A stretch of 64,000 bases of DNA from Escherichia coli (GCF_030384885.1 NZ_CP128613.1); one strand, 5' to 3'. Counted from the stretch's first letter, positions 60,486 to 63,012 are shown. Notes: a model not told the origin generated them from the sequence alone. A program made the numbers and translations.

Positions 60486-61292
60486 ATGATCGAAACGCTG
60501 CTTGAAGTGCGTAATTTAAGTAAAACGTTCCGCTACCGGACCGGCTGGTTTCGTCGTCAGACCGTAGAAGCGGTAAAACCCTTGAGCTTTACGCTACGTG
60601 AAGGCCAGACACTGGCGATCATTGGCGAGAATGGTTCTGGTAAATCCACGCTGGCGAAAATGCTGGCGGGAATGATAGAACCGACCAGCGGCGAGTTATT
60701 GATTGACGATCATCCGCTGCATTTTGGCGATTATTCCTTCCGTAGTCAGCGTATTCGCATGATTTTTCAGGATCCTTCGACCTCGTTGAATCCCCGTCAA
60801 CGTATCTCGCAGATTCTTGATTTTCCACTGCGCTTGAACACCGATCTGGAACCTGAACAGCGTCGGAAACAGATTATTGAAACAATGCGGATGGTTGGGC
60901 TGCTACCGGATCACGTCAGTTACTATCCGCATATGTTGGCACCCGGGCAAAAACAGCGTCTGGGGCTGGCGCGCGCGCTGATATTGCGTCCAAAAGTGAT
61001 TATTGCCGATGAAGCCCTCGCCTCACTGGATATGTCGATGCGTTCGCAGTTGATTAATCTGATGCTGGAGTTACAGGAAAAACAGGGCATTTCGTATATT
61101 TATGTCACCCAGCATATTGGGATGATGAAGCACATTAGCGACCAGGTACTGGTGATGCATCAGGGCGAGGTTGTCGAGCGAGGTAGTACTGCGGATGTGC
61201 TCGCCTCTCCGCTGCACGACCTCACTAAACGACTGATTGCCGGTCATTTTGGCGAGGCATTGACGGCGGATGCGTGGCGTAAGGACCGTTAA
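60486..61292 (+). CDS. sapF: ABC ATPase SapF
   Basis: 268-aa ORF with Walker A GENGSGKST and Walker B IIADE. Confidence 0.95.
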   Translation: MIETLLEVRNLSKTFRYRTGWFRRQTVEAVKPLSFTLREGQTLAIIGENGSGKSTLAKMLAGMIEPTSGELLIDDHPLHFGDYSFRSQRIRMIFQDPSTSLNPRQRISQILDFPLRLNTDLEPEQRRKQIIETMRMVGLLPDHVSYYPHMLAPGQKQRLGLARALILRPKVIIADEALASLDMSMRSQLINLMLELQEKQGISYIYVTQHIGMMKHISDQVLVMHQGEVVERGSTADVLASPLHDLTKRLIAGHFGEALTADAWRKDR

Positions 61293-61362
61293 TTTTCTGA
61301 ATCAAGCTTGCAGAATATTCACCTCATTCTGACAGGGAAATTCATCCTGTCAGAATGAAGGG

Positions 61363-61809
61363 ATGGATAAAATAAAAGCAAATGCCCGCGATTTAAGACG
61401 CAACCTCACCCCGCAGGAGCGAAAGTTCTGGCGATATCTTCGCAGCCGACGTTTTGCTGATTTCAAATTTCGCCGTCAACATCCGGTGGGGAATTACATT
61501 CTCGATTTTGCCTGTTGCTCTGCACGTTTAGCGGTAGAGCTTGATGGTGGGCAACATGATTCAGCTATCGCGTATGATACCAGGCGCACGCGCTGGCTTG
61601 AGTCCCAGGGCTGGACCGTGCTGCGTTTCTGGAATAACGAGATCGATCATAATGAAGAGGCGGTTCTGGGGGAGATTCTGCAGGAACTGAACCGCCGGTC
61701 ACCCTCACCCCAACCCTCTCCCCAGAGGGGCGAGGGGGCTGTATGTGCCTGTTTGTTGCTGCGCAGGCAAATGAACAAGCGGTGCCGGGGATCATTCTGC
61801 AGGAACTGA
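61363..61809 (+). CDS. ycjD: DUF559 (Vsr-like endonuclease fold) protein YcjD, with a 3' end running into GC-rich repeats
   Basis: The ORF MDKIKANARDLRRNLTPQERKFWRYLRSRRF...VELDGGQHD...LRFWNNEI is recognised as YcjD. The conserved domain ends at about codon 112. The remaining tail (SPSPQPSPQRGEGAVCACLL...) is encoded by repeat DNA, so the true stop and length are uncertain. Confidence 0.8.
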   Translation: MDKIKANARDLRRNLTPQERKFWRYLRSRRFADFKFRRQHPVGNYILDFACCSARLAVELDGGQHDSAIAYDTRRTRWLESQGWTVLRFWNNEIDHNEEAVLGEILQELNRRSPSPQPSPQRGEGAVCACLLLRRQMNKRCRGSFCRN

Positions 61810-61928
61810 GCCGCCTGTTACCCTCTCCCTGAAAGGGCATGGGGGCTGTATGTGCCTGTTTGTTGCTGGGGTGACAACGCGCACAATCGGTCCCCTCGCC
61901 CCTCTGGGGAGAGGGTTAGGGTGAGGGG
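61675..61928. repeat. GC-rich palindromic repeat cluster (Box C-like): two direct copies plus one inverted copy
   Basis: 61675-61761 and 61794-61868 share attctgcaggaactga..ccctctccc..gggggctgtatgtgcctgtttgttgctg. The segment 61892-61927 is the reverse complement of 61702-61737 (35/36 by hand alignment). The motif ccctctcccc-N4-ggggcgaggg matches my memory of Box C elements first described next to envM/fabI. Confidence 0.65.
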
Positions 61929-62080
61929 AAAAGCGCACACCCGTGCCCACATTCCTGCCAACTATAGCCACCCACAGCCAGGTTGATTATAATAACCGTT
62001 TATCTGTTCGTACTGTTTACTAAAACGACGAATCGCCTGATTTTCAGGCACAACAAGCATCAACAATAAGGATTAAAGCT

Positions 62081-62869
62081 ATGGGTTTTCTTTCCGGTAA
62101 GCGCATTCTGGTAACCGGTGTTGCCAGCAAACTGTCCATCGCCTACGGTATCGCTCAGGCGATGCACCGCGAAGGAGCTGAACTGGCATTCACCTACCAG
62201 AACGACAAACTGAAAGGCCGCGTAGAAGAATTTGCCGCTCAATTGGGTTCTGACATCGTTCTGCAGTGCGATGTTGCCGAAGATGCCAGCATCGACACCA
62301 TGTTCGCTGAACTGGGGAAAGTTTGGCCGAAATTTGACGGTTTCGTACACTCTATTGGTTTTGCACCTGGCGATCAGCTGGATGGTGACTATGTTAACGC
62401 CGTTACTCGTGAAGGCTTCAAAATTGCCCACGACATCAGCTCCTACAGCTTCGTTGCAATGGCAAAAGCTTGCCGCTCCATGCTGAATCCGGGCTCTGCC
62501 CTGCTGACCCTTTCCTACCTTGGCGCTGAGCGCGCTATCCCGAACTACAACGTTATGGGTCTGGCAAAAGCGTCTCTGGAAGCGAACGTGCGCTATATGG
62601 CGAACGCGATGGGTCCGGAAGGTGTGCGTGTTAACGCCATCTCTGCTGGTCCGATCCGTACTCTGGCGGCTTCCGGTATCAAAGACTTCCGCAAAATGCT
62701 GGCTCATTGCGAAGCCGTTACCCCGATTCGTCGCACCGTTACCATCGAAGACGTCGGTAACTCCGCAGCGTTCCTGTGCTCCGATCTCTCTGCCGGTATC
62801 TCCGGTGAAGTGGTCCACGTTGACGGCGGTTTCAGCATCGCTGCAATGAACGAACTCGAACTGAAATAA
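62081..62869 (+). CDS. fabI: Enoyl-ACP reductase (NADH) FabI
   Basis: 262-aa [43 protein letters not shown].... Unmistakably FabI. Confidence 0.98.
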
Positions 62870-63012
62870 TCGTTCTGTTGGTCAAGATGGGCGGCGTTCT
62901 GCCGCCCGTTATCTCTGTTATACCTTTCTGATATTTGTTATCGCCGATCCGTCTTTCTCCCCTTCCCGCCTTGCGTCAGGATAACGATTTCCTTTACGAC
63001 CAAGGAGCGCCC

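Follow-up and report, generated by a model that had tools for sequence, protein, structure and literature searches.

In this study, we analysed a 64,000-nt stretch of Escherichia coli DNA (the window), the 3′ end of which is the sapD-sapF-ycjD-fabI region, and conclude with high confidence that Box C-type palindromic modules are part of the YcjD-type gene unit. The repeats that follow ycjD in the window are genuine copies of the known Box C family. The descriptive statements below carry at least the same confidence. As to interpretation, the feature is probably the 3′-terminal repeat region of a gene cassette whose gene is of YcjD type, encoding a DUF559 protein (a Vsr-like PD-(D/E)XK nuclease). 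The Box C family, the polymorphism of the locus and the nuclease fold are already known; in the literature we found no paper that ties DUF559 to Box C or to flanking palindromes, although subscription journals were thinly covered and an earlier description is possible.

The features of the region, counted from the first nucleotide of the window, are as follows.

61319-61363, no strand assigned: palindrome with 18-nt arms in the sapF/ycjD gap, 89% complementary, reaching the ycjD start codon
61363-61809, + strand: ycjD ORF, 148 aa in the window allele, ending ...EILQELNRRSPSPQPSPQRGEGAVCACLLLRRQMNKRCRGSFCRN; its TGA (61807-61809) lies inside tandem unit 2
61369-61692, within the ycjD ORF: DUF559 / PD-(D/E)XK nuclease-like domain of YcjD, residues 3-110
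61651-61769, + strand: tandem unit 1, 119 nt, in which Box C copy A follows the final ~46 nt that encode the YcjD domain
61697-61761, + strand: Box C copy A, forward type, with C-rich block CCCTCACCC at 61702-61710
61714-61736, + strand: copy A hairpin, left arm 61714-61723, loop AGA, right arm 61727-61736
61723-61727, + strand: conversion patch CAGAG; the other alleles except L010 read TGAAA, and the four changed bases match copy C
61734-61761 and 61841-61868, + strand: 28-nt exact direct repeat, the tails of Box C copies A and B
61770-61876, + strand: tandem unit 2, 107 nt, in which Box C copy B (61815-61868) follows a degenerate duplicate of the ycjD 3′ end
61876-61928, - strand: Box C copy C, inverted type, with hairpin 61893-61915, TTA 61916-61918 and G-rich block GGGTGAGGGG 61919-61928
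61965-61993, + strand: fabI promoter-like site TAGCCA-17-TATAAT, 37 nt past copy C

YcjD belongs to DUF559 (PF04480) and hence to the Vsr-like PD-(D/E)XK nucleases, as its match to the PF04480 profile (E 1.1e-46, 157.6 bits) is above the curated cut-off of 20.6 and its acidic core is kept, the columns of D48, E59 and D61 (YcjD numbering) being invariant in a 31-sequence alignment. PDB 3hrl is also a profile match (E 1e-38), and the match to the intron homing endonuclease I-Bth0305I (PDB 3r3p) is weak but significant (E 0.0035). DUF559 has been grouped with Vsr (PMC1189080, PMC3424549), and the fold family includes a true homing endonuclease (PMC3424549). Unlike a Vsr mismatch-repair endonuclease of the dcm-vsr type, YcjD has no partner cytosine-5 methyltransferase gene adjoining its own: the neighbours of ycjD in the window are sapF and fabI, neither being such a methyltransferase, and no methylase adjoins the ycjD-type genes of the Klebsiella or Enterobacter loci, where the neighbours differ. 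Comparison of the window-type with the K-12-type gene gave a dS of 0.43 and a dN/dS of 0.18, the latter indicating that ycjD is under purifying selection, and the divergence of the window haplotype is far above the species norm. Past ~61700 the window ORF is translated repeat DNA only, and a gene identical to it is flagged as incomplete (a pseudogene call) in PGAP annotation.

Beyond the domain, two diverged tandem units are followed by the inverted copy C. Positions 61651-61710 and 61770-61829 are 82% identical over 60 nt at an offset of 119, and 61713-61770 and 61820-61877 are 83% identical over 58 nt at an offset of 107; a 12-nt indel, CCCTCACCCCAA, whose sequence is in unit 1 only, separates the units. 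Tandem Repeats Finder did not report this 119/107 duplication because it is too diverged and contains an indel, its sole report there being an internal 12-nt repeat at 61701-61724. The Box C core, CCCTCACCC-NN-CCCTCTCCCC-NNN-GGGGCGAGGGG, is complete in copies A and C. Copy B is degenerate, lacking the C-rich block and having a decayed stem that forms a weak hairpin (-4.4 kcal/mol), and copy C is the nearest of the three to the dispersed Box C consensus. A single mismatch separates segment 61892-61927 from the reverse complement of 61702-61737, and this inverted pair extends to 61702-61753 and 61876-61927 (52 nt at 87%). Shuffles of the window gave zero such matches, and elsewhere in the window the 36-mer core has only this single inverted recurrence, with one mismatch. 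Every element described by the initial annotation, including the 36-bp inverted copy and the reading of ycjD through the repeat to the TGA (an ORF of 148 aa), was recovered from the window by repeat search and ORF analysis. The assembly artefact it had allowed for was rejected, since the complete genome of strain 2013C-4282 is 100% identical over 801 nt; the same haplotype is present in four further complete genomes, so that independent complete genomes share the layout.

Box C was reportedly first seen beside envM/fabI, by Bergler et al. in 1992, and is said to have been surveyed by Bachellier et al. in 1999. Our searches revealed a median of 15 places per E. coli genome with copy A as query and of 17 with a consensus 54-mer, with maxima of 27-30 over the two queries (30 with the 54-mer) and 20 places in K-12 BW25113. 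Nearly all of these places fall in unannotated intergenic DNA, for example at ygfF/gcvP, yhjG/yhjE, uxuB/uxuR and gudD/barA, and copies A and C are 85-98% identical to the dispersed copies. The latter read TTCCCCTCACCCTAACCCTCTCCCCAAAGGGGCGAGGGGACTG and are often paired with an inverted variant; gene-less pairs in E. coli have the layout inverted module, 28 nt, forward module, which may be likened to an empty cassette, and no orthologous filled/empty pair was found for them. Only ~10 nt of ycjD-like coding sequence, of doubtful similarity, stands upstream of the dispersed copies. O157:H7 has no ycjD, yet contains 13 Box C places, and B2-type strains, also without ycjD, have only one to five. 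The assignment to a Box C-like family made from the palindromes is borne out by this dispersal and by the literature, which recognises BoxC as a stem-loop family of E. coli (PMC2267715, with 22 copies detected against a literature figure of 32 and none listed for Salmonella).

Of the 5426 complete E. coli genomes, 3376 carry ycjD, with a median of one place and always at one site. The window-type allele (>= 99% identity) occurs in five of the 5426, and every other ycjD allele is 80-90% identical to it. In about 2050 genomes eefRABCD stands at the site instead of ycjD and Box C, with the fabI promoter unchanged; PMC12817139 has already described this ycjD/eefRABCD polymorphism, together with a 12-nt difference in the 3′ end of ycjD. 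The K-12 ycjD segment is ~83% identical to the window, with nearly identical flanks, and the three-copy layout is also found in K-12 and strain 042 (83-88% identity to the window). The duplication is common to the window, K-12 and ST69-type alleles, which are 12-17% diverged; the three-copy arrangement is old and not peculiar to the window strain.

Eight alleles were aligned (the window, K-12, and those designated L010, L012, L100, L101, L102 and L103). The 107-nt unit 2 is precisely deleted in L010 (12 contigs) and L102, the junction lying inside the 28-nt exact repeat. L012 (16 contigs) is a K-12-type allele without unit 1 that has recombined inside the duplicated gene end, and slippage between the two 12-nt repeats reported by Tandem Repeats Finder has removed the 12-nt C-rich block from K-12. 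The CAGAG patch is present in the window and L010. In L100 and L101, sister strains of the window, copy A reads CCCTCTCCC-TGAAA-GGG, in which the TGA is codon 121 and ends a 120-aa protein. K-12, strain 042 and Enterobacter likewise have TGAAA with its in-frame TGA, and the TGA is retained in Klebsiella; this stop is therefore ancestral. In the window allele, a 5-nt patch copied from the inverted copy C replaced the ancestral ycjD stop, and this single event explains why the 36-nt inverted repeat is nearly perfect as well as why the ORF reads through to 148 aa. Gene conversion between the repeats and template switching are indistinguishable as the mechanism of this patch. The initial annotation had attributed the read-through to the repeat itself; the tail is indeed translated repeat, and its cause is the patch that overwrote the stop.

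As these alleles show, Box C modules in Escherichia recombine among themselves by deletion and conversion, and the ycjD-Box C locus is unstable. Copy number at the locus varies through the deletion alleles, and the 36-mer is part of a dispersed family rather than unique to this locus. The proposal that the repeats mediate local rearrangement is thus borne out for deletion (L010, L102 and L012) but not for inversion, as no inversion of the A-C interval was found among the eight aligned alleles. Rearrangement directly upstream of fabI likewise exists as natural variation, but we found no evidence that the repeats matter for fabI. Homology common to all E. coli starts again at ~61959, and the fabI promoter-like site is kept in strains without ycjD and Box C. 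A role of Box C in fabI control is unlikely, because the ~2050 genomes without the whole segment keep the same promoter.

The association of the modules with the gene extends far beyond E. coli. Among the 120 closest homologues of YcjD, the majority of sequences from other enterobacterial genera have the tail ..LPSPRPSP before the stop or read through as ..PSPRPSPWKGEGE, and both tails are CCCTCACCCCGGCCCTCTCCCTGAAAGGGAGAGGG (Box C) in translation. In Klebsiella the gene is flanked by genes for an ABC-transporter binding protein and a Dyp-type peroxidase, and in Enterobacter by those for a radical-SAM HemN-like protein and a DUF2884 protein (gene yggN in E. coli). Since the neighbouring genes differ, YcjD is the only constant partner of the modules. 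In the E. coli, Klebsiella and Enterobacter loci a forward Box C overlaps the stop and is followed by an inverted Box C, and Klebsiella has a tandem array of 3.1 units of 66 nt. A search of 1.84 billion cluster representatives returned 26,023 relatives (E <= 0.001). In a large share (by eye, not counted) of the best 150 of these, which represent 50%-identity protein clusters, translated GC-rich palindromes stand before and/or after the domain (PSP..GEG, LSPRGRGAGGEG, TLSQRERE etc.), in several cases the same on both sides. The initial annotation had missed that the palindromes go with the DUF559 gene family across bacteria.

Eighty loci from named genomes of Proteobacteria, Desulfobacterota, Chloroflexi, Melainabacteria, Spirochaetes, Elusimicrobiota, Bacteroidota and others were then compared. 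A typical locus has an inverted-type module upstream of the gene (hairpin, then a GGGTGAGGG-like block) and a forward-type module downstream (a CCCTCACCC-like block, then hairpin). When each upstream flank was aligned with the reverse complement of the downstream flank, the best score had a median of 49 compared with 17 in 1424 shifted controls and exceeded the control 99th percentile in 62 of 79 loci; the exceptions were mainly enterics, in which both modules are downstream. A GC-rich hairpin stands at the domain end in 74 of the 80 loci, the arms having 44 different sequences. In 44 of the 80 loci the nearest upstream module is of inverted type, and in 56 the first downstream one is of forward type. 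Module density within 200 nt of the gene is 2.44 per kb, compared with 0.056 per kb elsewhere (44-fold), and only 15 distant module copies were found in 676 kb around the non-enteric loci. The module of a Dehalococcoidia locus, TCACCCTCACCCTAGCCCTCTCCCTCAGGGAGAGGGG, is near the E. coli consensus; ~35 nt are conserved from E. coli to Dehalococcoidia, and YcjD itself is ~50% identical across phyla in the 31-sequence alignment. Protein identity is 0.527 within arm types and 0.512 between them, a detectable but tiny difference that is confounded by host relatedness. Only 23 relatives were found in 2.9 million viral contigs, the distant ones without modules, so that this is not an element carried by phages.

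The ORF reads through the module in 40 of 68 non-enteric loci, and the frame of the module relative to the ORF is unfixed (28/17/23). The module is therefore a nucleic-acid element and not a peptide, and since all three frames are used, the protein tails arise as by-products of C/G-rich DNA devoid of stops. A PSP peptide with a function at the C terminus was rejected on the same ground. The modules follow one order: C-rich block, 2-3 nt, C/T-rich arm, loop of 3-6 nt, G/A-rich arm. The hairpin flanking YcjD-type genes is of the CCCTCTCCC/GGGAGAGGG type, with arms that vary by taxon (CCCTCTCCC, CCTTCCCC, CCCCTCCCG, CCCTCCCC), the block varying along with them. Among 44 asymmetric arms, the block fits the mirror of the arm better in 28 loci, worse in four and equally in 12. 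Neither Watson-Crick pairing nor the binding of a symmetric dimer to duplex DNA accounts for this mirror repeat. If the block of the G-rich strand folded onto the stem, a canonical purine-motif triplet would be expected at every position.

The palindromes might instead be ordinary 3′-end RNA elements, terminators or mRNA-stabilising structures of the kind proposed for REP, which would end ycjD and insulate fabI and be unrelated to YcjD. The hairpins do lie directly 3′ of the coding region, Box C copies are intergenic, and the predicted fold of a transcript of 61680-61960 is very stable (-163.6 kcal/mol, z -8.6), with only the long-range A:C pairing being unusually stable. However, the single copies have hairpin z scores of 0.03, -0.10 and -3.25, copies A and B being equal to shuffles; there is no U-tract, and a terminator scan of the + strand found none. 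Neither did the Rfam scan of 60500-63000 (E <= 1) match any family. The inverted module upstream of the gene in 44 of 80 loci would yield a different, G-rich RNA there, and both the ~35-nt conservation and the mirror co-variation of block and arm are needless for a generic hairpin. We therefore regard an RNA role as unlikely. The symmetric, inverted placement of the modules on either side of the gene argues for a role at the level of DNA rather than RNA, and a module sequence conserved across phyla needs an equally conserved reader.

On the cassette reading that we favour, the unit is built and has evolved as follows. Box C is the enterobacterial form of a block-arm-loop-arm module. In most bacteria the unit consists of inverted module, gene and forward module, an inverted pair around the gene, and in Enterobacteriaceae of gene, forward module (overlapping the stop and translated as ..PSPRPSP with the stop) and inverted module. 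In Escherichia, the gene 3′ end and the forward module were tandemly duplicated long ago; recombination between the direct repeats has since removed one unit in some alleles, and the inverted pair A/C is subject to short-patch templated correction. In the window allele, such a correction changed TGAAA to CAGAG, destroying the stop, lengthening the ORF to 148 aa and making the 36-nt inverted repeat near perfect. The modules are predicted to be the DNA sites of the encoded nuclease, in a homing-like, selfish-cassette or autoregulatory arrangement, and the ~20 gene-less Box C copies of E. coli would be dispersed derivatives of cassette ends. That the encoded nuclease acts on the modules is a tentative proposal, somewhat less likely than not. 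It draws on the inverted symmetry of the modules, on YcjD as their one conserved candidate reader, on the homing endonuclease in its fold family and on the gene-less pairs of E. coli. An independent hint of the cassette is the 14-fold enrichment of DUF559 among genes that long inverted repeats overlap (PMC9881135). Slightly more speculative is the general form of the idea, in which YcjD-type DUF559 proteins would be the cognate nucleases of Box C-type modules in a bacteria-wide selfish or domesticated cassette, its G-quadruplex/triplex-capable ends being conserved from E. coli to Chloroflexi and having seeded the gene-less E. coli Box C.

Several observations count against parts of the cassette model. 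In E. coli ycjD is single-copy at one site, which speaks against mobility, and E. coli has no upstream inverted module; the Box C places of O157:H7 exist without ycjD. In many non-enteric loci synteny is preserved between genera, often with a break directly upstream of the gene, so that no present-day mobility of the cassette is visible. The scarcity of distant module copies around most non-enteric loci and the weak co-variation of protein similarity with arm type also tell against the model. No clean Box C insertion with target duplication was found at the three sites examined: at ygfF-gcvP the whole segment is replaced, ygfF included, with no recognisable duplication; at uxuB-uxuR a REP-containing and a Box C-containing segment replace one another, Box C being there in 38 genomes only; and the E. 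coli site corresponding to the Enterobacter gene has different gene content, with REP present and Box C absent.

Non-B DNA offers a further explanation, in which a G-quadruplex/i-motif or intramolecular triplex makes the site a recombination or replication-pause hotspot and DUF559 merely inserts or survives there. A canonical G4/C4 motif is present on the 3′ side in 57 of 80 loci and on the 5′ side in 44, compared with 0.014 per 150 nt elsewhere, and the 64-kb window has just two such motifs, in copy A (61702-61723) and copy C (61906-61928). The mirroring of arm by block, the position of Box C at the edges of segment replacements and the synteny breaks directly upstream of the gene would fit such a hotspot as well. 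Nevertheless, this account leaves unexplained the two-sided inverted bracketing of one gene family and the 44-fold enrichment, and as a full explanation it seems improbable, somewhat more so than the RNA elements; a possible G4/triplex hotspot is compatible with the cassette model. A programmed inversion switch that flips the A-C segment, or in other taxa the whole DUF559 gene, is very improbable: DUF559 is 14-fold enriched among predicted programmed-inversion targets, that is, genes overlapped by long inverted repeats (PMC9881135), and the window has an inverted repeat of 36-52 nt, but that enrichment is expected anyway from the flanking inverted repeats, ycjD has sapF and fabI for neighbours, with no recombinase gene in the vicinity, none of the eight aligned alleles is inverted, and the interval in the window contains only the non-coding unit 2.

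The proposed cassette can be placed beside known systems. As in Box C of the literature, the modules here include GC-rich imperfect palindromes of ~50-56 nt, intergenic and dispersed; the literature covered treats Box C as an orphan E. coli repeat, whereas here it is tied to the ycjD 3′ end and to DUF559 genes of many phyla, and copy A of the window differs by its converted loop. REP/REPIN-RAYT systems likewise have a usually single-copy nuclease-type gene flanked by inverted short palindromic repeats, with gene-less copies and pairs elsewhere in the genome. However, YcjD is a small PD-(D/E)XK (Vsr-like) protein whereas RAYT is an HUH Y1 transposase, and the dispersal of Box C is modest, E. 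coli having ~20 copies and most other taxa few. Homing endonucleases of the I-Bth0305I type (EDxHD/Vsr-like) belong to the same fold superfamily, and there too a repeated sequence is split in two by a small stand-alone nuclease gene; in contrast, the DUF559 gene is free-standing, outside any intron or intein, many of its loci are syntenic across genera, and no empty target allele with clean boundaries was found for it. A transposon or MITE would be expected to have terminal inverted repeats and a target-site duplication at polymorphic insertions: the DUF559 unit has inverted terminal modules, and a segment replacement with no recognisable duplication is what two of the three examined sites show. 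Quasipalindrome template-switch mutagenesis is known from the work of Ripley and, in E. coli, of the Lovett laboratory. The window patch resembles it in that an imperfect inverted repeat was made more perfect by four changes in 5 nt matching the partner arm, and differs in that the arms are 122-155 nt apart.

Box C has stood for three decades among the E. coli repeats without an assigned function or origin, and YcjD/DUF559 is a very large, uncharacterised family. A link between the two gives an orphan repeat and an uncharacterised gene a shared and testable explanation and, if true, would provide a second system of short palindromic repeats and a nuclease, with an enzyme class unlike that of REP-RAYT. 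It also explains the odd PSP..GEG tails and fusions in DUF559 gene calls, the pseudogene call on the window ycjD allele and the flagging of DUF559 by inversion-prediction pipelines. At the locus itself, it documents deletion and conversion events ~100-340 nt upstream of the essential fabI. The palindrome at 61319-61363, in the sapF/ycjD gap, is not Box C; it has promoter-like hexamers on either strand, is kept in K-12 and stands where most DUF559 genes of other taxa have the upstream inverted Box C-type module.

The allele of ycjD, a nuclease-like DUF559 (PF04480) gene, that is carried in the window (61363-61700) is a rare, deeply diverged haplotype, since just 5 of the 5426 complete E. coli genomes have an allele with at least 99% identity to it, the remaining alleles being 80-90% identical. 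The dS between this stretch and its K-12 counterpart is 0.43. In contrast to ycjD, the flanking genes sapF and fabI are nearly identical to those of K-12. These data suggest that this allele represents either an old balanced polymorphism or an introgression from a diverged Escherichia lineage.

A palindrome lies at the start of the gene:

Window 61319-61363: palindrome with 18-nt arms, ending at the ycjD start codon.

Promoter-like hexamers are present on both of its strands, and its K-12 counterpart is conserved as a perfect palindrome. This element could act as an operator or as a translational block. It stands where DUF559 loci of other taxa have the upstream inverted Box C-type module (a C-rich block plus a hairpin).

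At the 3′ side of a DUF559 gene, a repeat array was found in Klebsiella quasipneumoniae (locus L015):

L015, 3352-3556: 66-nt unit repeated 3.1 times in tandem, 95% identity.

The array has the DUF559 stop codon on one side and an inverted Box C on the other, and the forward hairpin opens each unit. Tandem amplification has thus occurred independently here at the 3′ end of a DUF559 gene.

Among related genera (locus sets L037/L042/L056, L055/L061, and L066/L085), synteny continues past the DUF559 gene on the downstream side and is lost on the upstream side 30-60 nt before the start of the gene, at the inverted module. Four loci (L044, L108, L111, and L112) have a variant module in which an additional small GGCC..GGCC hairpin separates the C-rich block from the main hairpin. 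L024, L026, L039, L052, L075, and L089 derive from gut MAGs whose assignments span different phyla (Muribaculaceae, Melainabacteria/Gastranaerophilales, and unclassified rumen bins), yet their DUF559 genes are 70-78% identical at the nucleotide level; this similarity is confined to the gene, suggesting binning errors or horizontal transfer. Many of the DUF559-domain proteins in the database reach lengths of several hundred residues (e.g., P0122, P0152, P0158, P0195, and P0200), apparently because the repeat DNA is free of stops and the domain is therefore joined to neighbouring ORFs during gene calling; such fusion architectures are probably annotation artefacts.

The number of Box C places per E. 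coli genome differs strongly among lineages, with 15-28 in many strains, K-12 among them, and 13 in O157:H7. ATCC 11775, PMV-1, and similar strains, presumably members of phylogroup B2, have no more than 1-5. A best Box C match of at least 95% is seen in 3345 genomes, nearly as many as have ycjD (3376). Box C copies were also seen at the edges of segment replacements: at ygfF-gcvP (L005/L106), ATCC 25922 and O145:H28 have approximately 130 nt of unrelated DNA in place of ygfF and a Box C pair, and the uxuB-uxuR spacer (L007/L107) holds a REP element in most genomes but Box C in 38.
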